Source of the DNA: a virus
Lineage: Duplodnaviria > Heunggongvirae > Uroviricota > Caudoviricetes
IMG/VR virus record: IMGVR_UViG_2695420817_000008
Strand: one strand, 5' to 3'
Length of the DNA stretch: 32,558 nt
How positions within the stretch are numbered: the first letter of the stretch is position 1; each line of letters opens with the position of its first letter. The notes under the pieces were generated by a model, which saw only the letters and a list, made by a program, of their open reading frames with translations, searched no databases and was not told the origin of the DNA. The translations under genes and the position numbers were made by a program. This document shows positions 1 through 12,632 of this stretch, in pieces.

Positions 1-201
1 AGGGAAGGCGTAAATTTCTTTCGTCCACGGATTAAGGCCGTACTGGTTGGCGACGATCAACAATGCGATGAACTGCGCATCGCTGGCATCACCTTTAAAT
101 GCCGTCTGGCGAAGAGTGGTGATCAGTTCCTGTGGGTCGACAGAATCCATGCCGACACGTTCAGCCAGCTTCCCAGCCAGCGTTGCGAGTGCTGTACTCA
201 T
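1..201 (-). CDS. bet: Bet (Red-beta) single-strand annealing recombinase, N-terminal 67 codons; gene continues past the window start
   Basis: Reverse-strand translation from the ATG at 199-201 reads MSTALATLAGKLAERVGMDSVDPQELITTLRQTAFKGDASDAQFIALLIVANQYGLNPWTKEIYAF, matching the lambda Bet N-terminus as recalled. Confidence 0.9.
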   Translation of the reverse strand, partial: MSTALATLAGKLAERVGMDSVDPQELITTLRQTAFKGDASDAQFIALLIVANQYGLNPWTKEIYAFP

Positions 202-206
202 CCGTT

Positions 207-503
207 TTATACCTCTGAATCAATATCAACCTGATGGTGAGCAATGGTTTCAACCATGTACCGGATGTGTTCTGCCATGCGCTCCTGAAACTCAACATCG
301 TCATCAAATGCACGGGTAATGGCTTTTTTGCTGGCCCCGTGGCGTTGCAAATGATCGATGCAGAGTGATTCAAACAGGTGCTGTGGAAGACCTTTTTCCA
401 TGTCGTCTGCCAGTTCTGCCTCTTTCTCTTCACGGGCAATCTGCTGGTAGTGACGCGCCCAGCTCTGAGCCTCAAGACGATCCTGAATGTAATAAGCGTT
501 CAT
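207..503 (-). CDS. gam: Gam host-nuclease (RecBCD) inhibitor, 98-aa short form
   Basis: Protein [39 protein letters not shown]...[10 protein letters not shown] matches lambda Gam from its internal Met onward. The upstream in-frame sequence hits a stop at 558-560 with no start codon, so only the short form is encoded. Confidence 0.9.
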
Positions 504-578
504 GGCTGAACTCCTGAAAATGGCTGTGAAAATATCGCCCGCGAAATGCCAGGCTGATTAGGAAAACAGGAAAGGGGA

Positions 579-989
579 TTAGTGATTCAGGCCGTTGCCT
601 CGTCCGTCGAGAAAAACTTCCACGAGCAAATCACGGGTATAAGTGCGCTCGATGCCGCGATGCAGATATAGCCGTCCGCGTAAATTAGCTGATGCTGTCC
701 AGGTACCATCTTTGTGTTTGACCAGCATTCCTGGCATGACCGCACCGCGATTAACGGTCTGCGTTCCGTAATGTTGATGAACCATAAAAACTCCTGCCCG
801 TAAGCTGGGCTGCTGAACATATAAAGACTTCTGCGCGTATTCAGGCGGTGGATGGCCGCCGGTTGTCATAACTAAGCCGCCTCGTTGAAGCGACTGAGGT
901 ATGAAATGTTGAGTTAATTTCAGCTGGTCACACCGACGTTCACGCGTCCGCTTCACCCCTCGCACTTCCCGGAGCCTGCTGAAATTCAA
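579..989 (-). CDS. hypothetical early-left protein (136 aa), first ORF downstream of the putative pL, in the N/kil position; function unknown
   Basis: Longest ORF between gam and the OL-like region, with an Arg-rich N-terminus. An alternative 77-aa ORF (587..820) in another frame overlaps it. No family recognised. Confidence 0.3.
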   Translation of the reverse strand: MNFSRLREVRGVKRTRERRCDQLKLTQHFIPQSLQRGGLVMTTGGHPPPEYAQKSLYVQQPSLRAGVFMVHQHYGTQTVNRGAVMPGMLVKHKDGTWTASANLRGRLYLHRGIERTYTRDLLVEVFLDGRGNGLNH

Positions 990-1059
990 GCTACGGATCT
1001 AAGCGGTCATCGCAACGGTGAATCAGGTGGTTGCCGTATCGTTGTGTTGTTGCGATATG

Positions 1060-1115
1060 ATGATAATAGCTATTGCTATTGGTGATATCAATACTTATTG
1101 CTATTGACTGATGTG
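1060..1115. promoter_or_regulatory. putative OL/pL operator-promoter region
   Basis: Two copies of TATTGCTATTG (1071..1082 and 1097..1108) in an AT-rich intergenic stretch; the same TTGCTATT motif recurs between the cI-like and cro-like genes. Confidence 0.4.
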
Positions 1116-1264
1116 TTTTGATATTAAATGTTTGATAGCAAAAAGAATTAATTTTGTGACTTGCATCGCATAGCGATAACTGAAGCAGGGGCATGGTGGT
1201 TTTTTGAACGGTGTGTGATGAGGGGAGGCAAAAGAAAACCCGGCACGACGGCCGGGGAGGGGGG

Positions 1265-1771
1265 TCATTTTAATCTATCAAGGAGTGGCTCTCTTTCCTT
1301 CTTCTCTGATTCTCTTCGGTTTAATAACGCTTTAAACTCTTGAAGCTCAACCATTATTTTATGAACGAATACACTGGTATAGAGAGAAATAAAGAGTAAT
1401 CCACCTGAAATTTTTAAGACCCTGAAGAGTAGGGCTTGATCATTTGTGCTTGCTATTAACCCCAAGATTACAAACAAAGTTGAAAATACATAGAAAGCTA
1501 ATAATAAAACCAATTTCAGTCTCTTGGATTTGACTATTGGCACTAATCGCCTAACCTCACTAGGGGTTAAAGACGAGTGGTCATTGGCCTCATTTGCCTT
1601 AAAAATGGCTTGTATACAATATGATAATGGCAATTGCATGAGTCCAACCACAGCCCACGGAGCTGTTAGGACAACACCCGGTGTAATATAGCCCAATGCT
1701 GACTTGAACAAAAAGTAACCAGCAACATAGAAGACCAACATACCAATAAGGTGGATGATGTTCGATTTCAT
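1265..1771 (-). CDS. small integral membrane protein (168 aa, four predicted TM helices); RexB-like or SieB-like exclusion candidate
   Basis: Hydrophobic segments IIHLIGMLVFYVAGYFLF, VVLTAPWAVVGLMQLPLSY, LKLVLLLAFYVFSTLFVILGLIA and GGLLFISLYTSVFV, with a charged C-terminal tail. AT-rich and co-oriented with the cI-like gene. Confidence 0.6.
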   Translation of the reverse strand: MKSNIIHLIGMLVFYVAGYFLFKSALGYITPGVVLTAPWAVVGLMQLPLSYCIQAIFKANEANDHSSLTPSEVRRLVPIVKSKRLKLVLLLAFYVFSTLFVILGLIASTNDQALLFRVLKISGGLLFISLYTSVFVHKIMVELQEFKALLNRRESEKKEREPLLDRLK

Positions 1772-1792
1772 TATCGCCCTCCTTTTGGTAGG

Positions 1793-2815
1793 TTATTTTG
1801 CAACCAATTCTCCGGCATCAAGTTTTGAGAACAGCCACTTATGCATTTTTAAGAATAAATCATTTTCATCAATAATGCCATTGTTATGTTCAACGCTAAT
1901 TTTTCCGGATAATTTTATCTCTTTTCCCGTTATTTCCCCACCGCCTTGAAGTTTGATGCTAATATCATCCTCATCTAGATGTCGTAGTGAGGTAGCAATA
2001 CTGTCTATAACAGCTTGACCGCTATCATTTGTTTTTCTGAAGTATGTAATCTCGAGGCTTACTTGTAAATTGGCCTCATCTAATGAATCTTTAATGTTTA
2101 TATCATTTGCCCAGTTATCGCCAAAAAATGCTTTTAGTAGCGCACCTCCTTTCCCTATTGGGCGGTATTTTATTGTCTTCACCGAACCATTTGAAAAGGA
2201 GGGTGTTTGGTTCTCTGAATTTTTAACTTCTGAAGTAATGGGTAATCCACCAATTTTTATGCTCTTGGCTGGTGCTTTCTCCATTTTTTTCATCGTTTCT
2301 TCGGATGGCTTATCTTGAAGCATTAACACAGATTCTTTTTCATCTGTGAATGTATTAATTAGCCAATTCAAATGCGCCTCAAGCTCCCTTGCTCGAAGCG
2401 ATGTGGATTGAACGATCATGACATGGTTGTTTAGTACACCAAAATATAAAATTGAATCTACAAACTCTCTTTTTTTGTCACTACGTTTATCTCCATCAAT
2501 AATTATATCATTAGACGTGATGGAGTTAATGTCATAAAATTTAACATTATCACTAAGCTCTAATAGAGACTGGCTTTTGTCTTTTTCAAATAAAACCAGT
2601 TGCCCAAAAAGTATAGTTTTGTATGTGTCGCTTTTATTTAAGAAACGATACCCCGAATTTTCATCTGAAGGTGTTATTTTTTCTTGTCTACTAAGTACTT
2701 TTTCTGCAACGCCGCCCTCACCTATAATACTAAGTAGTATGTTTTGTAATGATGATTTGCTGTGTGGGATTACTGCTTTTTTATAATGAACGACTTTTTG
2801 TCTGTTATCTTTCAT
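1793..2815 (-). CDS. hypothetical soluble protein (340 aa), RexA-position partner of the membrane protein; no recognisable catalytic motif
   Basis: Long AT-rich ORF immediately downstream of the cI-like gene on the same strand, 21 nt upstream of the membrane-protein gene. No Walker or nuclease motif seen. Confidence 0.6.
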   Translation of the reverse strand: MKDNRQKVVHYKKAVIPHSKSSLQNILLSIIGEGGVAEKVLSRQEKITPSDENSGYRFLNKSDTYKTILFGQLVLFEKDKSQSLLELSDNVKFYDINSITSNDIIIDGDKRSDKKREFVDSILYFGVLNNHVMIVQSTSLRARELEAHLNWLINTFTDEKESVLMLQDKPSEETMKKMEKAPAKSIKIGGLPITSEVKNSENQTPSFSNGSVKTIKYRPIGKGGALLKAFFGDNWANDINIKDSLDEANLQVSLEITYFRKTNDSGQAVIDSIATSLRHLDEDDISIKLQGGGEITGKEIKLSGKISVEHNNGIIDENDLFLKMHKWLFSKLDAGELVAK

Positions 2816-2873
2816 TGCTATAGTCCAACTAGTATTGAATAAATAAACACAGTAAAGACATAAAAATTTCTTA

Positions 2874-2901
2874 TAGCTACCGATAACGTAATCGGTAGCT
2901 A
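2874..2901. promoter_or_regulatory. perfect 11-bp inverted repeat (TAGCTACCGAT / ATCGGTAGCTA, 6-nt spacer) between cI-like stop and the RexA-position gene; hairpin terminator/attenuator or operator
   Basis: Read directly from the sequence; on the minus strand it is followed by a T-rich run. Confidence 0.4.
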
Positions 2902-2937
2902 TTACAAATCAACCAAAGGTAATTCTTTACATACTAC

Positions 2938-3630
2938 CTACCCATGCTTCCTGTAGGTCTGCGGCATGCTCCCAATAACTTTCCCGAAGATAAACACCCG
3001 GTTCATCTCGTCTTTCTCGATAGGATCCCACGGTGAGTAGCTCTTGTTATCAGAGATAACCAGCAGTTTATCCTTCATCATTTGCAGGCGCTTTACATGG
3101 GCGGTGTCGTCGTACAGAAATGCATAGATACCATCACCGTCGAAAGATTTAACCGTGATATCAACGAACAGCAGATCACCTGGTTCGATCGTTCCTGACA
3201 TGCTGTCACCACGCACGTTAATGATGCGGATATTTTCTGCCTTCCTGCCATCGAACATGTGACGAGCATCGTCAAACGAGTACTCAACCGAGCGTAGAAC
3301 TTCTACAAACTCACGGTTGATGACTCCCGGCCCGGCACTGACTTCTATATCAAGAACGTCAATTTTGAAGTATTTGGAATGGCTGACAGCAGGCTTCCCT
3401 GATTGTTGACCGTCATTTCTCATCGGGCCTATGCCTGATGAGAGCCATTCTGTTCGAACACCCAATGCATTAGCTATTTCAACAATTTTTGTTGAGCCGC
3501 GCGCGTTGCCGCTTGTCAGTCTCCAGATTGTGGGTTGAGCTACGCCAGACGCCTTTGCAAGAGCGCCTTGAGACATTCCAGATTGTTCCATCGCTAGGTT
3601 TAAGCGATCAGCAAGAGTTTCTTTTTTCAT
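2938..3630 (-). CDS. CI-like prophage repressor (N-terminal HTH, C-terminal LexA-like S24 peptidase domain)
   Basis: HTH segment QGALAKASGVAQPTIWRL, Ser nucleophile in VRGDSMSG and Lys in HVKRL. Start taken as the ATG at 3628-3630 (MKKETLADRL); the ORF is open to a TTG at 3666. Divergent from the cro-like gene. Confidence 0.8.
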   Translation of the reverse strand: MKKETLADRLNLAMEQSGMSQGALAKASGVAQPTIWRLTSGNARGSTKIVEIANALGVRTEWLSSGIGPMRNDGQQSGKPAVSHSKYFKIDVLDIEVSAGPGVINREFVEVLRSVEYSFDDARHMFDGRKAENIRIINVRGDSMSGTIEPGDLLFVDITVKSFDGDGIYAFLYDDTAHVKRLQMMKDKLLVISDNKSYSPWDPIEKDEMNRVFIFGKVIGSMPQTYRKHG

Positions 3631-3666
3631 AAGTTTTAATTTATACGCTTGCGTATTGATGGTCAA

Positions 3667-3740
3667 AACACGTTTTGCTATTGCTTGGATTAATACTCAT
3701 TGCTATTATTCATTCATTGCAATACCAATAGGAATTGATA
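3667..3740. promoter_or_regulatory. putative OR operator region (pR / pRM) between divergent cI-like and cro-like genes
   Basis: Repeated TTGCTATTG / TTGCTATTA / TTGCAATAC half-site-like motifs in a 70-bp divergent intergenic region. Confidence 0.5.
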
Positions 3741-3968
3741 ATGACAAATCAAACCATTCAACTCGCAATCAGTATTACAGGTAGTCAAAAGCGACTGGCA
3801 GATCTATGCGGTGTAGCCCAGCCCACTGTTTGGCGTTGGCTACACGGTGGCGGAATTGATGCCCGCTATGTAATGAAAATTGTCTCAGCCACTGGTGGAA
3901 AGATTAAACCAGCAGATATTCGTCCCGACCTCGCACCATTGTTTAACGCGAGTAATTCTGCCGCCTAA
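3741..3968 (+). CDS. Cro-like HTH regulator (YdaS family)
   Basis: 75-aa protein with HTH segment GSQKRLADLCGVAQPTVWRW, divergently transcribed from the repressor gene. Confidence 0.75.
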   Translation: MTNQTIQLAISITGSQKRLADLCGVAQPTVWRWLHGGGIDARYVMKIVSATGGKIKPADIRPDLAPLFNASNSAA

Positions 3969-3992
3969 TCTGCGGCGTTAACTGATAAGGCA

Positions 3993-4538
3993 ATGACTAT
4001 GCAACCACTTACATACCAACAGACTAGCGGATTTAGCCCGACTGCGGTGATAAATCGTTCTCAAACAAAACAAGCTCCAGGCCACGAAAAAATCCGTGAT
4101 GCCGTCCGCGCCTGGTCGGCTGCAGATAATCAGGATGTTGTTGCCGCACTCATTGTGAATGAGTATCGGGAGCAGGGCGGCGGCACCATCGATTTCCCTG
4201 ATGATGTCAGCCGTGCACGCCAGAAGCTGTTCCGCTTCCTCGATAACAAATTCGATTCTGAAAAATACCGAAATAACGTGCGTGAACTGACCCCGGCAAT
4301 TCTGGCGGTACTACCGCTGGAATATCGCGGCCACCTGGTTGAGCAGGATAGCTTCATGGCTCGGCTGGCTGAAATGGAAAAGGAACTCAGTGAGGCAAAA
4401 CAGGCTGTCATTCTCAACGCACCACGCCACCAGAAACTGAAGGAGATGAGTGAAGGCATTGTGTCGATGTTTCGTGTGGACCCGGATCTGGCTGGTCCAC
4501 TGATGGCGATGGTCACCACCATGCTGGGGGCAATATGA
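3993..4538 (+). CDS. YdaT-like protein (Rac prophage ydaT family) in the cII position
   Basis: Segments NEYREQGGGTIDFPDD and LTPAILAVLPLEYRGHL resemble Rac YdaT as recalled; lies between cro-like and O. Confidence 0.6.
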   Translation: MTMQPLTYQQTSGFSPTAVINRSQTKQAPGHEKIRDAVRAWSAADNQDVVAALIVNEYREQGGGTIDFPDDVSRARQKLFRFLDNKFDSEKYRNNVRELTPAILAVLPLEYRGHLVEQDSFMARLAEMEKELSEAKQAVILNAPRHQKLKEMSEGIVSMFRVDPDLAGPLMAMVTTMLGAI

Positions 4539-4624
4539 CAGGTTCGGAAATGGCGAAAGCCGGTCTGCGCGAACAGAACCGACTTTCAGGTGCAAATCGT
4601 AACACACTCATTGCGGGAGGAATT

Positions 4625-5554
4625 ATGGCAAACACTGCTGAGATATTCAATTTTCCAGTGCCGGATGCGGCACAAAAGGAGCCGCGCGTGGCAGATCTCG
4701 ATGATGGTTATACGCGCATTGCAAATGAGTTGCTGGAAGCTGTGATGCTGGCCGGATTAACACAGCACCAGCTTCTGGTCTTTCTGGCTGTCATGCGCAA
4801 AACATATGGCTTTAATAAAAAACTGGATTGGGTTAGCAACGAGCAACTTTCCGAATTAACCGGGATATTGCCGCACAAGTGTTCTGCTGCAAAAAGTGTT
4901 CTGGTAAAGCGTGGGATTCTTATTCAGAGCGGGCGGAATATCGGCATCAATAATGTGGTCAGTGAATGGTCAACATTACCCGAATCAGGTAAGAAAAATA
5001 AAGTTTACCTGAAAGAGGTAAATTTACCTGAATCAGGTAAGAAAAGTTTACCCAAATCAGGTAAAGGCACTTACCCGAATCAGGTAAACACAAAAGACAA
5101 ACTAACAAAAGACAATATAAAACCTTTTTCGTCCGAGAATTCTGACGAATCCTCTGACCAGCCAGAAAATGCCCTTCCTGTGGTGAAACCGGATGCTGCG
5201 ATTCAGAGCGGCAGCAAGTGGGGGACAGCAGAAGACCTGACTGCCGCAGAGTGGATGTTTGACATGGTGAAGACCATCGCGCCATCAGCCAGAAAACCGA
5301 ATTTTGCAGGGTGGGCTAACGATATCCGCCTGATGCGTGAACGTGACGGACGTAACCACCGCGACATGTGCGTGCTGTTCCGCTGGGCCTGCCAGGACAA
5401 CTTCTGGTCCGGTAACGTGCTGAGTCCGGCCAAACTACGCGACAAGTGGACCCAGCTCGAAATCAACCGTAACAAGCAACAGGCTGGCGTGACAGCCGGA
5501 AAACCAAAACTCGACCTGACGAACACTGACTGGATTTACGGGGTGGAGCTATGA
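4625..5554 (+). CDS. O: replication initiator O (divergent iteron-binding N-terminal half, lambda-like C-terminal half)
   Basis: GGAGG RBS before the ATG at 4625. N-terminus MANTAEIFNFPVPD...VADLDDGYTRIANELLEA resembles lambda O; C-terminus DMCVLFRWACQDNFWSGNVLSPAKLRDKWTQLEINRNKQQAGV...DWIYGVEL matches lambda O as recalled. Confidence 0.9.
   Translation: MANTAEIFNFPVPDAAQKEPRVADLDDGYTRIANELLEAVMLAGLTQHQLLVFLAVMRKTYGFNKKLDWVSNEQLSELTGILPHKCSAAKSVLVKRGILIQSGRNIGINNVVSEWSTLPESGKKNKVYLKEVNLPESGKKSLPKSGKGTYPNQVNTKDKLTKDNIKPFSSENSDESSDQPENALPVVKPDAAIQSGSKWGTAEDLTAAEWMFDMVKTIAPSARKPNFAGWANDIRLMRERDGRNHRDMCVLFRWACQDNFWSGNVLSPAKLRDKWTQLEINRNKQQAGVTAGKPKLDLTNTDWIYGVEL
4976..5130. repeat. phage origin of replication inside O: four 18-bp iterons (TTACC[C/T][G/A]AATCAGGTAA[G/A]) at 24-bp spacing plus one degenerate copy, followed by an A/T-rich segment
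   Basis: Iterons at 4976..4993, 5024..5041, 5048..5065 and 5071..5088; degenerate copy near 5004..5021. Each is an imperfect palindrome (TACC...GGTA). A-rich stretch follows at 5089..5130. Confidence 0.85.
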
Positions 5555-6261
5555 AAAACATCGCCGCACAGATGGTTAATTTTGACCGTGAGCAGATGCG
5601 CCGGATCGCCAATAACATGCCGGAACAGTACGACGAAAAGCCGCAGGTACAGCAGGTAGCGCAGATTATCAATGGTGTGTTCAGCCAGTTACTGGCAACT
5701 TTCCCGGCGAGCCTGGCTAACCGGGACCAGAATGAACTGAACGAAATCCGCCGCCAGTGGGTTCTGGCTTTCCGGGAAAATGGGATCACCACGATGGAAC
5801 AGGTTAACGCTGGAATGCGCGTAGCCCGTCGGCAGAATCGACCATTCCTGCCATCACCCGGGCAGTTTGTCGCCTGGTGCCGGGAAGAAGCATCCGTTAA
5901 CGCCGGGCTGCCAAACGTCAGCGAGCTGGTTGATATGGTCTATGAGTATTGTCGGAAGCGTGGCCTGTATCCAGATGCAGAGTCTTATCCATGGAAATCA
6001 AACGCGCACTACTGGCTGGTTACCAACCTGTACCAGAACATGCGGGCCAATGCGTTGACTGACGCGGAATTACGGCGCATGGCTGCCGATGAACTGTCCT
6101 GTATGACCGCGCGAATTAACCGTGGTGAAGCGATCCCTGAACCGGTGAAACAACTTCCTGTCATGGGCGGCAGGCCGCTTAATCGTGTTCAGAGCTTGGA
6201 AAAAATTAAACAATTGCGTGCTAAACATGGATTATGTAGAGGGAAAAGGTTTAGTGGATGA
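5551..6261 (+). CDS. P: replication protein P (DnaB helicase loader)
   Basis: MKNIAAQMVNFDREQMRRIANNMPEQYDEKPQVQQVAQIINGVF... matches lambda P as recalled for most of its length; the last ~25 residues diverge. ATGA overlap with the O stop. Confidence 0.92.
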   Translation: MKNIAAQMVNFDREQMRRIANNMPEQYDEKPQVQQVAQIINGVFSQLLATFPASLANRDQNELNEIRRQWVLAFRENGITTMEQVNAGMRVARRQNRPFLPSPGQFVAWCREEASVNAGLPNVSELVDMVYEYCRKRGLYPDAESYPWKSNAHYWLVTNLYQNMRANALTDAELRRMAADELSCMTARINRGEAIPEPVKQLPVMGGRPLNRVQSLEKIKQLRAKHGLCRGKRFSG

Positions 6262-6384
6262 AAGTAATGAGGTGATTTCCTTCTCTCCCACACTTCAAAA
6301 GATAGAGTTTATTATTTGAATTTACTATAATTTACTGATAAAACAAAAGAATTGTAGAGCAATTTTCATTTGAGGATGAAGTAA

Positions 6385-8031
6385 ATGTGTGAAACCTATA
6401 TTTTTAGGTTCCGTGACCTAGGAAAAAGTGAAGGATTTACCATCGAGCAACACAATAACATTGCTCGCCAAGAAGGGAATGTTTGGTGGGGGTGGTGGGC
6501 TAAATCTGGTGAGCGTTTCCCATCACTGGAACTAAAAAATGCGGCAGAAAAAAATAAACAAATATATTTTTTTGATTCAGGGCGGCTTAAATTTTATACC
6601 GCTGTATTAAAGGATACCTGCTCGTCAGCTTTAGGGGATATAAAAAAGCAATCTCCTAAGGATGGTCGCAGAACCCCAGCATATTATAATGAGAATGAGT
6701 TGCTGGGATGGTTAAATGTTTCTGAGATTATAGAAATTGATGCTTGTGATATCCTCAAAAAATTCACATATATTCCATTGGATGCATTGTTTGCAGGTAA
6801 TAAAGATTTAGATGAGCAACTTTTCAACAAAATTGTCTTTTCTTCAGCTGAATTAAAAAAACAAGATAGAACTATTTGGAAGATTAGACCTGCAAATGAT
6901 AAAGATTTACAGCATGAGTCATTAGCATCTCATTATGTTCCTTATAATTTCAGTCGGAAGTATAGCCAAAAAAAAGGGGAGTTTATAATTTGGCTTTCGG
7001 ATATTCATTTTGATGGCGGAAATGGGAAACATGCATTTCCGACACAAGATAATGATCAGCTAAAATGTTTATCCTCTCGAGTGGTGGAGTTGGCTGGAAA
7101 ATATAATAATGGGAGTAAATGTGCTGGGTTGGCTATTTCAGGTGATTTGACGTGGCAGTCACAGAAAGAGGGATTCGAGCAAGCTTTGAATTTTATCAAA
7201 GATGTTAGTTCTTCTCTTAGTCTGACAACGGATGATATAATTATTTGTCCTGGGAATCACGATGTAGGTCTGGTTTCTAAAGATGAGTACTTTAAAATCG
7301 TTGGTAAGCCTGTAACGGATAAACCATGGAAAATTCTGGCGGAAAACTACCATAGCGAAAGTAAACTTAATTATATAAAATTTTATCGAGATTTTTTTCA
7401 AAGGGAACCTGAAGAAAATTTATCACAAGGAAGGAAATTTTTACTAGGTGGCCATAAAGTTGTTGAAATAGCCGCATTGAACTCATGCGTATTACAACAA
7501 GTAAAAGATTCATTTTTGGGCATGGGATTTGTCGGTGAGCAACAACTCAGTGATGTTGCAAAATCTATGGGATGGATGAATGATAGCGGAGGAGATATAC
7601 TCAAAAAGAAAGGTGTTATAAGAATTGCTATGCTTCACCATCACCTAACTTCTATTAATGAAGTTGAAGATGCCTATCTTGATTCAAGATATAGTGTAAC
7701 ATTAGATGCAGAGCGATTATTACGTTGGGTAGTAAGGCATAAAGTTGATTATATTCTGCATGGTCATATGCACAGAAGTAGTTTTATTACAATAACAAAA
7801 AAACTATCTCCGTTAGAACCAGTGACGGATTCAAATCCTGAACATACATTCCAAATTGTTTCTTTGGGAAGTTCAGGAGTTGTTAGTTCGGAATTGCCAA
7901 GTCAGGATTGTGCTAACTATGCATGCGTACTGGATTTTTCTGGCGAAAAGCTAACTTTTAATTTTTTCAAGCTTGATAAACAGAGCGGAGAAAAAGTGGC
8001 GGCTACTTATATTGTTGAAGGTTTATTATGA
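6385..8031 (+). CDS. calcineurin-like metallophosphoesterase (548 aa) with an unassigned ~200-aa N-terminal domain
   Basis: All five metallophosphoesterase motifs in order: LSDIHFDG (D-x-H), ISGDLTW (GD), CPGNHD (GNH[DE]), MLHHHL (H) and LHGHMHR (GH-x-H). N-terminal region contains GNVWWGWWAK. AT-rich codon usage; GAGGA RBS. Confidence 0.8.
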   Translation: MCETYIFRFRDLGKSEGFTIEQHNNIARQEGNVWWGWWAKSGERFPSLELKNAAEKNKQIYFFDSGRLKFYTAVLKDTCSSALGDIKKQSPKDGRRTPAYYNENELLGWLNVSEIIEIDACDILKKFTYIPLDALFAGNKDLDEQLFNKIVFSSAELKKQDRTIWKIRPANDKDLQHESLASHYVPYNFSRKYSQKKGEFIIWLSDIHFDGGNGKHAFPTQDNDQLKCLSSRVVELAGKYNNGSKCAGLAISGDLTWQSQKEGFEQALNFIKDVSSSLSLTTDDIIICPGNHDVGLVSKDEYFKIVGKPVTDKPWKILAENYHSESKLNYIKFYRDFFQREPEENLSQGRKFLLGGHKVVEIAALNSCVLQQVKDSFLGMGFVGEQQLSDVAKSMGWMNDSGGDILKKKGVIRIAMLHHHLTSINEVEDAYLDSRYSVTLDAERLLRWVVRHKVDYILHGHMHRSSFITITKKLSPLEPVTDSNPEHTFQIVSLGSSGVVSSELPSQDCANYACVLDFSGEKLTFNFFKLDKQSGEKVAATYIVEGLL

Positions 8032-8864
8032 AATTACTTATTACTGATTTGGATAATACACTGTACGATTGGGTGAGTTTTTACTCCCAGTCATTTAGTG
8101 CCATGGCAGAGCAATTATCTAAGGATATTGATGTGCCTTTGGATACGCTCCTGTCAGAATATAAAACAATTCATCAGAAGTTTGGTAACTCAGAAAAACC
8201 ATTTGCTACTTTAGAGCTACCATCTGTGATATCTTACTTTGGAACTAATGATAAAACGATTTTGCAGGAAAAACTTACTAATGTTTTTCAGGCGTTTAGC
8301 ACAAAACGTAACCAGACATTAATGTTGTATCCTACTGTAAAAGAAACGCTGGAATTATTGAAGAAACGGGGGGTAAAAATTGTAGGGCATACTGAAGCTT
8401 TGGAGTTTAATTCTTTATATCGTCTGAATAAGCTTGGTATAATTGATTTTTTTGATCATCTTTATACATTAGAAGATATTCATAATATCCACCCGAATCC
8501 CAAAAATGCAAAAAAAATACCTGTGAAGGATGACTTTGTAATTAGATTGTCCTGCGCTGAGTCAAAGCCAAACCCTAAATTGCTTGAGCACATATGTTCT
8601 TTTGAAGGAGTTAGTGTTGAAGATGCGGTATACATTGGCGATTCTATAACTAAAGATATGTCCATGGCTAAAGCTGTGGGGGTTACTGCTGTTTGGGCTA
8701 ATTATGGGCGACAGTTTTCACCTGAATTGTGGAAAGTTTTAGTGAAAATCACACACTGGAAAGATGCAGATGTGGAGAGGGAGGAACAACTTAGAAAAGC
8801 ATTCTCCAATGTTAGACCTGATTATGTTGTTAATAGTTTTTCAGAGCTGCTGAATTTGAAATGA
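8028..8864 (+). CDS. HAD-superfamily phosphatase (278 aa), translationally coupled to the phosphoesterase gene
   Basis: HAD motif I LITDLDNTLYDW (DxD), a conserved Lys in ESKPNPK and motif IV YIGDSITKD. Its ATG overlaps the upstream TGA (ATGA). Confidence 0.8.
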   Translation: MKLLITDLDNTLYDWVSFYSQSFSAMAEQLSKDIDVPLDTLLSEYKTIHQKFGNSEKPFATLELPSVISYFGTNDKTILQEKLTNVFQAFSTKRNQTLMLYPTVKETLELLKKRGVKIVGHTEALEFNSLYRLNKLGIIDFFDHLYTLEDIHNIHPNPKNAKKIPVKDDFVIRLSCAESKPNPKLLEHICSFEGVSVEDAVYIGDSITKDMSMAKAVGVTAVWANYGRQFSPELWKVLVKITHWKDADVEREEQLRKAFSNVRPDYVVNSFSELLNLK

Positions 8865-8875
8865 GCATGTGCAGG

Positions 8876-8906
8876 CTCCAAATTTTTAATGATTTGGAGT
8901 TCTTTA
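8876..8906 (+). terminator. putative intrinsic terminator after the HAD gene
   Basis: Perfect 8-bp inverted repeat CTCCAAAT / ATTTGGAG with an 8-nt loop, followed by a T-rich stretch. Confidence 0.4.
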
Positions 8907-9455
8907 TGGGGTTATTTTTTAATTTGGTGATTTTTCCCAATATTGAGATGTTGTTGAACTCGTGAGTTATATTTAACGTATTTGATGTTAATGAAATAAT
9001 AATATCACAATGCAAGCTCCCTGCATTTTCTTGTAGGGGGCATGCTATTTAGAATAAGCTTATGGTCAAGATTAAATTATGAACTGCTATTTTGATGGGC
9101 TGTTTATTATATTGGGGTTGTTTTCTTTTTGAGTTTTTATGGTTGAGATGAACGTTTGTTAAATGTTTTAACACCCTTTGTTACAACATTCATCATTTTT
9201 ACTGTTTGCTAACATAATGTTAGACTGAAATTATTAATTTGTGAAACTAATCATCTAATTTAACAATACAAAATTGAGATCCAATAATCAAAATGCCATA
9301 ATAATGTCATCGGAGCCTGAACAACTCCGGTGACTTCTGCGCTAAACGGGGACGTTTATGCGCACATACAATCCAAACTCTCTTCTCCATTCACAGATGC
9401 AGAAATGCACCTGCGTTTTTTTGCATCCAGCGTCTGACCTCTGTGGAGGTGAAGC

Positions 9456-9911
9456 GTGAACCTACCACAAGATGGCATCAAACTGCATCGCGGTAACTTC
9501 ACCGCTATCGGTCAGCAGATCCAGCCTTATCTGGAGGACGGCAAATGCTTTCGCATGGTGCTTAAACCGTGGCGTGAGAAACGCAGTCTTTCCCAGAATG
9601 CACTCAGCCACATGTGGTACAGCGAAATCAGTGAATACCTCATCAGCAGGGGTAAAACGTTCGCCACTCCAGCTTGGGTAAAAGATGCTCTCAAACACAC
9701 ATATCTCGGTTATGAAACCAAAGACCTGGTTGATGTCGTAACCGGTGATATCACCACTATCCAGTCGTTACGCCATACCTCCGATCTTGATACCGGAGAG
9801 ATGTATGTCTTCCTGTGTAAGGTTGAAGCCTGGGCGATGAATATTGGCTGCCACCTGACTATTCCGCAGAGCTGCGAGTTCCAGCAGCTCCGCGACAAAC
9901 AGGAGGCGTAA
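9456..9911 (+). CDS. ybcN: YbcN-like protein (DLP12 ybcN homolog)
   Basis: GTG start after a [27 protein letters not shown]...[20 protein letters not shown]... matches E. coli DLP12 YbcN as recalled. Confidence 0.85.
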
Positions 9912-10081
9912 TGGCTACACCGCTTATTCGTGTCATGAACGGGCACATTTACAGAGTACCAAATCGTCGTAAGCGTAAACCTGAGCTGAAGCCTTCCGAA
10001 ATACCAACACTGCTCGGATATACCGCCAGCCTGGTTGATAAAAAATGGTTGCGACTGGCAGCAAGGAGGAATCATGGCTGA
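9911..10081 (+). CDS. ninE: NinE-like small protein (56 aa)
   Basis: [56 protein letters not shown]. Start overlaps the ybcN stop; not in the supplied ORF track because it is under 60 aa. Confidence 0.65.
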
Positions 10082-10556
10082 TTTGAGAAAAGCAGCGCGT
10101 GGTCGGGAATGCCAGGTAAGAATCCCTGGCGTATGTAATGGCAACCCTGAAACGTCTGTACTGGCACATATCCGGCTGGCTGGATTGTGCGGCACCGGTA
10201 TTAAACCGCCAGACCTTATTGCCACCATTGCCTGTTCTGCCTGTCACGACGAAATCGACCGCCGCACGCACATCAGCGCAGAAGGGCAGGTATACCGTGA
10301 TAACGTCGCCCGAATCATTAAAGGCTCAATGCTGGATATCGGTCTGGCTATGCCTGTGAAAATCCGCATTGAGTGCCACATGCCGGATCGCCGTCGCCGT
10401 GACCTGGATAATCTGCAAAAAGCCGCTTTTGACGCACTCACTAAAGCAGGTTTCTGGCTGGATGATGCTCAGGTCGTTGATTACCGCGTTGTGAAGATGC
10501 CTGTTACCAAAGGTGGGAGGCTGGAACTGACCATCACTGAACTGGGGAATGAATGA
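10074..10556 (+). CDS. rusA: in-frame YbcO (DUF1364) N-terminal part fused to RusA Holliday-junction resolvase C-terminal part (160 aa chimera)
   Basis: After an AAGGAGG RBS: [66 protein letters not shown] (YbcO-like) runs directly into [94 protein letters not shown] (RusA residues ~27-120 as recalled). Confidence 0.7.
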
Positions 10557-10693
10557 TGTTTGAGTCTTATATGGCAGAGCGTCTTCGCCGCCGCTGGGTG
10601 CGCCTGCGCTTATATCGTTTTCCTGGTTCTGTTTTGACCGATTACCGGATACTGAAGAATTACGCCAAAACACTGAAAGGAGCTGCCGCATGA
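10553..10693 (+). CDS. ylcG: YlcG-like small protein (46 aa)
   Basis: [46 protein letters not shown]; ATGA overlaps with both the rusA stop and the Q start. Confidence 0.65.
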
Positions 10694-11379
10694 ATACCCA
10701 ATATTTACAGTATGTCCGCGAGCAACTCATTGTGGCTACCGCTGATTTGAGCGGAGCAACGAAAGGACAGCTTGAAGCCTGGCTGGAGCATGCACAATTT
10801 GATACTGGTAAATACAAACGAAAGAAGCTGCGCATTCTGGATGAGGTAACTGGCAGGATGATTACGCTGGATAATCCGCCGATTTCCGGTAAGCAGTCGT
10901 ACGCAAAAGGTTCATCCATTGCACTGGTAAGCCAGGTTGAGTTCTCAACCTCGTCATGGCGCCGCGCGGTTCTGTCTCTCGAAGAACATCAGAAAGCGTG
11001 GTTGCTGTGGAGTTACAGCGAAAGTGTTCGCTGGGAACATCAGGTCACCATAACGCAGTGGGCATGGAGCGAGTTTAAGACTCTGTTGGGTACCAGAAAA
11101 ATTGCAGGTAAGACACTGGAACGTTTGAAGAAGTTGATCTGGCTGGCGGCACAGGATGTGAAGAACGAGCTGGCAGGGCGTAAGACCTATGAATACCAGG
11201 AGCTGGCATCACTGGTGGGAGTGACATCAAAAAACTGGTCTGAGACATTTACTGAACGCTGGGTTGCAATGAAGCACATTTTTCTACAGCTTGATAGCGA
11301 AGCTTTATTGCTTGTAACGAGAACACGTTCAAAACAAAAGACGACATTTTCACAGCAAAGTATTGCAAAACTGGATTGA
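10690..11379 (+). CDS. late-gene antiterminator Q-like protein (229 aa)
   Basis: Called by position: last gene of the nin region, directly upstream of a pR'-like promoter and a 6S-RNA-like leader. It is not lambda Q by sequence. Confidence 0.55.
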   Translation: MNTQYLQYVREQLIVATADLSGATKGQLEAWLEHAQFDTGKYKRKKLRILDEVTGRMITLDNPPISGKQSYAKGSSIALVSQVEFSTSSWRRAVLSLEEHQKAWLLWSYSESVRWEHQVTITQWAWSEFKTLLGTRKIAGKTLERLKKLIWLAAQDVKNELAGRKTYEYQELASLVGVTSKNWSETFTERWVAMKHIFLQLDSEALLLVTRTRSKQKTTFSQQSIAKLD

Positions 11380-11452
11380 AAGGCATATATTCCGTGTAAA
11401 TCTGATATTTTGCCAATGTTGTATGTGCAACTGTTCGTAGGTGTCGTAAGGG

Positions 11453-11481
11453 TTGACTATCCAATTTCCAGGATATAGATT
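11453..11481 (+). promoter_or_regulatory. late promoter pR'-like (TTGACT, 17-bp spacer, TAGATT) with a lambda-like leader downstream
   Basis: Sigma-70 hexamers read directly. The downstream leader (CCGCCAAGTTGGTAACTTCGAC...GGGACTCCAACC...GAGAGGTC) resembles the lambda pR'/qut leader as recalled. Confidence 0.6.
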
Positions 11482-11600
11482 TTTCTGCAATAAAGGTTTT
11501 GGGAATGAAGGGGCGGCTCCCAAAAGATAACCGCCAAGTTGGTAACTTCGACTCGATAATTGGTCTGGGACTCCAACCGTGTCGGCTGAGAGGTCGACGT

Positions 11601-12404
11601 CTATTTCTTTTGGGGAAGTGGATACTTTAAGCTAACATTTTGAGTTTCTATATCTCGTGGCCCTCGAGTTTTATCATAAAAATACCAGATATTAAATTTT
11701 CTCTCAGTGTGCCATGTATCATATTGCAAATGATCCCAGCCTAAATATGAAGCAACATAGTTTGATACTCTTATTTTGGCTTCAGATGAAGCTTTTCCTT
11801 GATATGCGCACATAACCGCACCTAAGAAAAAATCGGCTAGCTGAATGTTTTCAGATGCTTTAGAGTCTTTTGTCACTACACTGCTGATTATCCCTTTACG
11901 ACCAAATTTTCTATTCAATATGTTATTGGCAATAACATTTAGTTCTTCATCGGCCTTTTTATAACGAGATGCGATAGGATCAACTTCAATCCTGAAGTAA
12001 CTGTCTCTTTCAGGGTGTGCAGAAATTACAGAGCTAATTTTTGTGGTAATGAGATTTGTGAAGTGCTTTCTCCTTGCCAGGTCATAATCCCCATTATGAA
12101 ATGTCTTGTTTACTATTGATTTTTCAACCACGATACAATGAAAAGCTAGCCAAGGAACTCTAAAGAATAAGTCGATCAGCTCAAGATAAAATTCAGAGTA
12201 TCTTTTTGAATGGGCTTTTTGCCATTTTATTTCTTCAAAAAAACCATGTTTGCTACGTAGTTCTCTGATTAGTTGACAGAAATCCCCACGGCGTTGGTAC
12301 TTCATCCACAGACTGCCAAAGCCGTAGAAACGTTGCCCATCAATGCCAGATTCATCGCAAGCAATATGCCAAATTAACTTACCAATGTTATCTTTTTCTG
12401 TCAT
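11601..12404 (-). CDS. hypothetical accessory protein (267 aa), possibly DUF3800-like; moron between Q and lysis genes
   Basis: AT-rich ORF antisense to late transcription, with N-terminal HIACDESG and C-terminal QLADFFLGAV motifs. Family assignment is from memory and tentative. Confidence 0.6.
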   Translation of the reverse strand: MTEKDNIGKLIWHIACDESGIDGQRFYGFGSLWMKYQRRGDFCQLIRELRSKHGFFEEIKWQKAHSKRYSEFYLELIDLFFRVPWLAFHCIVVEKSIVNKTFHNGDYDLARRKHFTNLITTKISSVISAHPERDSYFRIEVDPIASRYKKADEELNVIANNILNRKFGRKGIISSVVTKDSKASENIQLADFFLGAVMCAYQGKASSEAKIRVSNYVASYLGWDHLQYDTWHTERKFNIWYFYDKTRGPRDIETQNVSLKYPLPQKK

Positions 12405-12632
12405 CTGCTGGTAATGCTCTTAGTCCTTAAAGCATGGTATTTAACCACACATGTAACTCATTGATAAAGATCGTTTTATGCAAGTTGCATGGATCGGCTT
12501 TTGAAGGCCATTCGCTTAGTTATAAGATTTTTTAGTTATTTTGAGTTGACTGTTTATAACAATATTTCCCATGTAAGTTTTTAATCATTAGCGTCCCGGC
12601 CTTTCGTCGGCGGCGAAACATTGGCTATTCAT

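Follow-up and report, generated by a model that had tools for sequence, protein, structure and literature searches.

A deletion between short direct repeats joins ybcO and rusA in frame in an Escherichia coli prophage and has most likely cost it the RusA resolvase

Background

The RusA resolvase of DLP12 and phage 82 (PDB entries 1Q8R, 2H8C and 2H8E; Pfam PF05866) is built on a four-stranded sheet flanked by two helices, and its dimer is held by a sheet-to-sheet interface, with active-site residues which hydrogen-bond across the subunits (PMC1636454). Residues 13-16 contact DNA, and N15, R16 and R19 have been proposed to recognise the crossover (PMC1636454); catalytic and DNA-binding roles have been assigned to D70, D72, D91, K76 and the loop 66-69 (PMC1636454, PMC10956419). 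YbcO (DUF1364; PF07102; PDB entry 3G27) is predicted from its structure to be a His-Me finger nuclease and stands in group 7 of Jablonska et al. 2017 (PMC5714182). In more than 2,900 complete genomes of E. coli the two proteins are encoded at the same place by separate genes, ybcO (96 aa) and rusA (120 aa), overlapping by four bases. As to deletions between short repeats, a classic example is given by the hotspots in lacI, reportedly described by Albertini et al. in 1982. We found no relevant description of a ybcO-rusA fusion or of rusA decay in the literature.

The fused reading frame and its surroundings

By "window" we mean the whole stretch of DNA analysed, 32,558 nucleotides long and identical with contig CYBO01000036.1 in GCA_001277715.1, a draft assembly of E. 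coli. It carries a lambdoid prophage, in which the replication genes O and P are followed by an insert coding for a metallophosphoesterase and a HAD hydrolase, then by ybcN, ninE, the fused ORF, ylcG and the antiterminator gene Q, and beyond Q come a DUF3800 gene, read from the other strand, and then the genes for lysis and the terminase. The exact fused protein has been deposited as CTU33482.1, CTV69460.1, CTV88920.1 and CTX46384.1, with the name 'endodeoxyribonuclease RUS'. The features on which the analysis bears are the following.

9456-9911, plus strand: ybcN (NinB-like), the upstream neighbour, in an unchanged nin-region context (annotation of syntenic intact loci; weak Pfam NinB match)
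9911-10081, plus strand: ninE, which ends 8 nt inside the fused ORF
10063-10069, plus strand: Shine-Dalgarno sequence AAGGAGG of ybcO, now serving the fused ORF, four bases upstream of the ATG and the same in intact relatives
10074-10556, plus strand: fused ybcO'-'rusA ORF, 160 aa, with ATG at 10074 and stop at 10554-10556 (ORF listing and sequence, two Pfam domains, matches to 3G27 and 1Q8R)
10074-10262, plus strand: ybcO-derived part (YbcO residues 1-63), sharing 100% identity with ybcO as it stands intact in SCU-301 and FHI_NMBU_03
10263-10270, plus strand: deletion junction, the surviving copy of the 8 bp direct repeat CGCACGCA; codons R64-T65-H66 span 10263-10271
10271-10556, plus strand: rusA-derived part (RusA residues 27-120 and stop; DNA alignment, PDB sequence match)
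10553-10693, plus strand: ylcG, its start codon sharing bases with the stop codon of the fused ORF (ATGA), whereby the downstream coupling is kept
10690-11379, plus strand: antiterminator gene Q, intact, downstream (Pfam Phage_antiter_Q, E 8e-95)

Nothing supports the antisense ORFs 9710-10228, 9933-10271 and 10326-10919 (all on the minus strand), which we set aside as mirror frames of the coding strand. Scans for Rfam families, promoters and terminators gave nothing beyond chance within or adjoining the fused ORF; no Rfam family attained its gathering score in the window as a whole (1-32558), and PADLOC returned no match for the fused protein.

Accessory genes are also found elsewhere in this prophage. 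The insert between P and ybcN (6385-8864, plus strand) consists of two genes, one coding for a 548-aa protein with Pua-like and metallophosphoesterase parts, the other, which overlaps it, for a 278-aa HAD hydrolase; in DLP12-like loci an alpha/beta hydrolase occupies this site. The 278-aa protein matches the PADLOC profile PDLC03008 'Hydrolase' from end to end (E 4e-57), and the 548-aa protein has weak PADLOC matches only. This insert may be a prophage-borne defence or moron cassette. The DUF3800 protein (11601-12404, minus strand) is encoded between Q and the holin, a classic moron site; in PADLOC it hits PDC-M04A, a candidate defence family, with E 8e-35.

Domain content of the hybrid

A preliminary description of this DNA had taken the ORF for a chimera of YbcO (about residues 1-66) and RusA (about residues 27-120), joined at a common R-T-H tripeptide. 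Profile and structure-sequence searches both bear this out. The Pfam profile YbcO/PF07102 matches residues 3-70 of the fusion (E 3.9e-34; profile positions 2-69 of 92; 117 bits for a cut-off of 29.9), and RusA/PF05866 matches residues 63-154 (E 6.3e-17; profile positions 18-123 of 124; 62.8 bits for a cut-off of 22.8). Searched against the sequences of the PDB, residues 1-71 align to residues 1-71 of YbcO in 3G27, and residues 63-160 to residues 23-120 of RusA in 1Q8R (E 1.9e-58). The overlap of the YbcO and RusA alignments is confined to the tripeptide R-T-H, that is YbcO 64-66 or RusA 24-26, at which the DNA alignment also places the joint. The ORF 10074-10556 is thus confirmed to be YbcO 1-66 joined in frame to RusA 24-120.

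The preliminary description is thus exact down to single residues. The acidic cluster of RusA, which the same description had given as retained, is indeed in place: DRRRRDLDN occupies residues 105-113 of the fusion and LDDAQ residues 129-133. With an offset of +40, the catalytic residues D70, D72, K76 and D91 of RusA are kept as D110 (10401-10403), D112, K116 and D131, and the Arg-rich DNA-binding loop 66-69 is intact as R106-R109.

One can also notice a private C-to-T change of the fused allele at position 10296 (codon 10294-10296, GTA, V73 of the fusion), which turns A33 of RusA into a valine. It is not found in the intact relatives that were aligned, and position 33 is variable in the family; this substitution is too little to serve as an argument for relaxed selection.

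A 167 bp deletion between direct repeats

When the window is aligned at the DNA level with the intact ybcO-rusA loci of E. coli SCU-301 and FHI_NMBU_03, there is a single gap of 167 bp and otherwise nothing notable. In the intact loci a copy of CGCACGCA stands at either end of this gap (ORF positions 190 and 357), and the window retains one of the two. The origin first proposed for the chimera, a deletion between short homologies which removed the C-terminus of YbcO and the N-terminus of RusA, therefore agrees with the alignment: YbcO 67-96 and RusA 1-23 are missing.

The 8 bp repeat reads R-T-H in the own frame of ybcO and in that of rusA. The two frames are offset by 2 nt, and the length removed is 167 = 55x3+2. 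Because of these two properties, a deletion between the two copies always yields a hybrid in frame. This means that the in-frame outcome is automatic and gives no evidence of selection. Several repeats of 8-10 nt are present in the intact locus, and an exact repeat of 8 bp in 650 bp is unremarkable by itself. Among intact copies we found none that would be the exact parent of the window allele; the closest, that of SCU-301, differs from it by 21 sites over 1245 bp.

A separate observation concerns a sister prophage, carried by E. coli FHI_NMBU_03 and also by Z1323HEC0016 and Z1323HEC0300, which is 99.8% identical to the window over positions 1-12500 and in which ybcO is intact. Its rusA (L005:1062-1418; about 10389-10400 in the window) has lost 6 bp in frame within a tandem TCGCCG-TCGCCG tract, by which DRRRRD is shortened to DRRD and the protein to 118 aa, two arginines of the DNA-binding loop 66-69 being gone. 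This loss is a second, independent slippage lesion of rusA in the same prophage lineage.

Recurrence of the deletion and other hybrids

A second fused allele was found in SRR23826124 (protein P0002, locus L004); it is the other member of the 90% cluster of the fusion, which has 2 members on about 10 contigs. Its prophage context is different and DLP12-like, with an alpha/beta hydrolase upstream, another Q, an nmpC-type porin and another lysis cassette. Base for base, the fused ORF of L004 is the intact ybcO-rusA of FDAARGOS_144 minus the segment between two 9 bp repeats CGCACGCAT: the identical prefix of 198 nt and the identical suffix of 294 nt add up to the 483 nt of the ORF plus 9. Between L004 and the window allele there are 68 differences in 1245 aligned sites, some to the left and some to the right of the junction. 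Since L004 is the intact FDAARGOS_144 locus deprived of a repeat-bounded segment, it has an origin independent of that of the window allele, and the lack of divergence from its intact parent means that the event is very recent. The comparison of these sequences supports at least two independent occurrences of the same ybcO-rusA deletion.

Other in-frame hybrids of ybcO and rusA exist: P0005 (112 aa), P0022 (91 aa; entered for E. coli O106 as a hypothetical protein), P0123 (117 aa; deposited as 'nuclease domain-containing protein') and P0135 (83 aa), to which one may add P0003, a 216-aa read-through fusion of the two genes. Their breakpoints differ, the deletions amounting to 311 and 374 bp where measured (loci L006:1501-1839 and L008:1501-1776), and those that were looked up form singleton clusters on 1-7 contigs. 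As a survey based on proteins detects in-frame events only, these hybrids are the visible portion of a general and repeated decay of the ybcO-rusA locus.

Distribution of the junction

We searched 5,426 complete genomes of E. coli with a probe of 121 bp laid across the junction. The junction occurs in none of them: all 18 matches of full coverage consist of two pieces spanning 288 bp. It is likewise missing from the GTDB species representatives, IMG/VR and the JGI metagenomes, according to exact-pattern scans, and from the phages of GenBank. The exact fused protein is encoded on about nine draft contigs, which include four NCBI records and Logan assemblies of other runs. As to the presence of the junction in other prophages, a point raised with the first description, it is rare: it was found again on the second allele and on these contigs, and in 0 of the 5,426 complete genomes.

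We also ran an exhaustive HMMER search on 1.84 billion representative proteins. The only end-to-end match (residues 1-160) came from the cluster of the fusion itself; all the rest are of two kinds, YbcO-like proteins of about 90-110 aa which align with residues 1 to about 70, and RusA-like proteins of about 120 aa which align with residues 63-160. The clusters of intact RusA have from hundreds to more than 1,600 member sequences. The fused allele occurs in at least four deposited assemblies and in several sequencing runs; it is inherited in some lineage. Its persistence in several assemblies indicates that there is no strong counter-selection, which fits neutrality and is compatible with usefulness too.

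Loss of the N-terminal part of RusA

The fusion lacks residues 1-23 of RusA, and with them strand beta1, the helical PPSNN turn (13-16), N15, R16 and R19. In an alignment of 26 RusA homologues, the deleted segment ranks with the best conserved parts of the protein: L8, P11, P12, S13, N14, N15, Y17, Y18, H20, R22 and G23 do not vary at all, and conservation is 90% or higher at P9, R16, R19 and N21; the N-terminal motif L-P-x-P-P-S-N-N-R-Y-Y (RusA 8-18) is not in the fusion. As beta1 (residues 3-9) lies wholly inside the deleted segment, the four-stranded sheet is incomplete. The fusion is also deprived of half of the loop which enters the junction.

We modelled intact RusA as a control and obtained a pLDDT of 85.9 and, against PDB 2H8E, a TM of 0.96 with an rmsd of 1.2 Å. 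The elements of this model are beta1 (3-9), a turn (14-17), a hairpin (18-27), alpha1 (29-45), a beta strand (55-62), alpha2 (71-85) and two further beta strands (94-102 and 109-116). The AlphaFold2 model of the fusion, made from an alignment of 31 sequences with the same homologues as the control, has a mean pLDDT of 46 (50-65 in the RusA part, below 45 in the YbcO half), a figure too low for a fold search and to be taken only as a contrast to the intact-RusA control, as AlphaFold confidence is not a measure of stability and the alignment of the YbcO half was very shallow. In this sense the low pLDDT of the fusion gives weak, supportive evidence of damage to RusA. An N-terminal fusion to full-length RusA is known to be tolerated in FokI-dRusA (PMC12120656), where tagging is an addition and not a replacement of beta1.

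From these residues and models, the resolvase activity of the fusion is most likely lost or severely reduced. The preliminary description had left the choice between a defective resolvase and a resolvase with a new N-terminal domain; our data favour the former, because the deleted segment holds a core beta-strand and near-invariant residues in contact with DNA.

Interpretation

We read the fused ORF as a spontaneous short-repeat deletion allele of ybcO and rusA, by which the resolvase has most likely been lost, as in ordinary prophage gene decay; we would give this reading a probability of about 0.8. The parent would have carried two adjacent, translationally overlapping genes of the nin region, in a lambdoid prophage with a nin module of the phage 82 / DLP12 type. 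Slipped-strand or microhomology-mediated illegitimate recombination between the copies of CGCACGCA, 167 bp apart, would have cut 30 codons from the end of ybcO and 23 from the beginning of rusA. The hybrid would be translated from the ribosome-binding site of ybcO in the early-right operon, the couplings with ninE, ylcG and Q being untouched, and it retains the full zinc/His-Me-finger core of YbcO together with the active-site residues of RusA. The loss of RusA would be tolerated because the recombination functions of the nin region are accessory for phage and host, as is established from nin deletions of lambda. What counts against a plain loss is that the RusA portion has its catalytic Asp and Lys residues together with its Arg loop, and that, of the fold, both helices and three strands out of four are left.

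The state of the YbcO half deserves a separate discussion. In the fusion, the 30 C-terminal residues of YbcO (67-96) are replaced by the RusA remnant. In a 44-sequence alignment of YbcO, the nine invariant residues A8, C13, C21, H32, G40, K44, C54, C57 and D62 are all kept in the fusion, and so are the six near-invariant ones, G10, R16, T27, V29, D47 and H58 (44 representatives), all of them lying within residues 1-62. The Cys4 cluster C13, C21, C54 and C57 is hence present together with H32, H58 and D62. The family is least conserved over residues 67-96, where there is no more than a loose helix-like pattern G-x-x-R-T...L...G. It follows from this conservation that the YbcO activity of the fusion, itself only a predicted activity, possibly survives. 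The hybrid would then be a YbcO nuclease with an inert RusA tail, in effect a clean knockout of rusA which spares ybcO. We regard this as possible but rather doubtful: nearly all homologues have a C-terminal segment with the recurring helix-like pattern, on which folding may depend, the pLDDT of the model stays below 45 across the YbcO half, though with a shallow alignment, and the nuclease activity of YbcO has been no more than predicted (PMC5714182).

It could also be imagined that the His-Me-finger/zinc module of YbcO takes the place of the N-terminal strand and loop of RusA, the product being an active junction or branch nuclease which has thereby gained a DNA-binding domain or a second nuclease domain and is maintained by selection. 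Every invariant residue of YbcO and every catalytic residue of RusA is retained, reading frame and translational couplings are preserved, the same junction arose twice and the allele is found in several isolates. However, the in-frame result is forced by the codon phase of the repeat and says nothing about selection, and a fixed microhomology makes recurrence expected. The hybrids are singleton clusters on 1-7 contigs, compared to hundreds to more than 1,600 sequences for intact RusA, and the L004 allele, undiverged from its intact parent, is very recent. Moreover the missing RusA segment is near-invariant and structural, the model of the fusion is of low confidence, and one sees neither diversification nor spread, nor any conservation past what descent explains. 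We consequently hold a selected new enzyme to be unlikely. Very unlikely, in our estimation, is a working two-module nuclease, in which the zinc/His-Me-finger domain would be tethered to a RusA core still able to dimerise, with an altered branch or sequence specificity. If it were true, the R-T-H repeat would be a ready-made route to domain fusion in lambdoid nin regions.

The window being a draft contig (CYBO01000036.1), one may ask whether the repeat was collapsed during the assembly of short reads. We consider such an artefact highly improbable, as an 8 bp repeat is far shorter than the k-mers of assemblers, as the identical protein is found in four NCBI records and in independent Logan assemblies (about nine contigs in total), and as an unrelated sample has the same type of junction on another allele. 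Finally, that the ORF might be colinear with an established full-length family of phage proteins, the chimera being a misreading, was the refuting condition named with the preliminary description; nothing speaks for it, and it is itself refuted, given that the HMMER search gave only the fusion's own cluster across residues 1-160 and that two separate genes stand at this position in over 2,900 complete genomes of E. coli.

Returning to the deletion allele with a defective resolvase, its biological importance is small, and it provides a clear natural example of a recurrent microhomology deletion of 8-9 bp fusing overlapping phage genes in frame. It also calls for caution in annotation, as the name 'endodeoxyribonuclease RUS' is carried by a protein without a core strand and without the conserved N-terminal motif. 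If the hybrid were active, this would mean that RusA tolerates the replacement of its N-terminal strand, and the present evidence points the opposite way.

Comparison with known systems

Compared to the RusA resolvase of DLP12 and phage 82, residues 64-160 of the fusion correspond to RusA 24-120 with few substitutions, it has kept D70, D72, N73, K76 and D91 along with the Arg loop 66-69, and the gene sits in the same genomic place, between ybcO and ylcG and upstream of Q. The difference is that the fusion has 63 residues of YbcO in place of RusA 1-23. Compared to YbcO, residues 1-66 of the fusion are those of the K-12 protein save 2 substitutions and show no difference from YbcO as encoded at the intact sister loci, whereas the RusA remnant replaces the C-terminal residues 67-96.

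The other ybcO-rusA hybrids resemble this one in joining the same pair of genes in frame and in being rare (1-7 contigs each); they have their breakpoints elsewhere, and most of them remove even more of RusA. With the slippage deletions between short repeats, for instance those of lacI, the present case shares a direct repeat of 8-9 bp which flanks the lost segment in the parent and of which one copy is left, as well as the recurrence of the event at the same repeat on independent backgrounds. There is no mechanistic difference from these deletions, except that in the present case two nuclease genes are joined.
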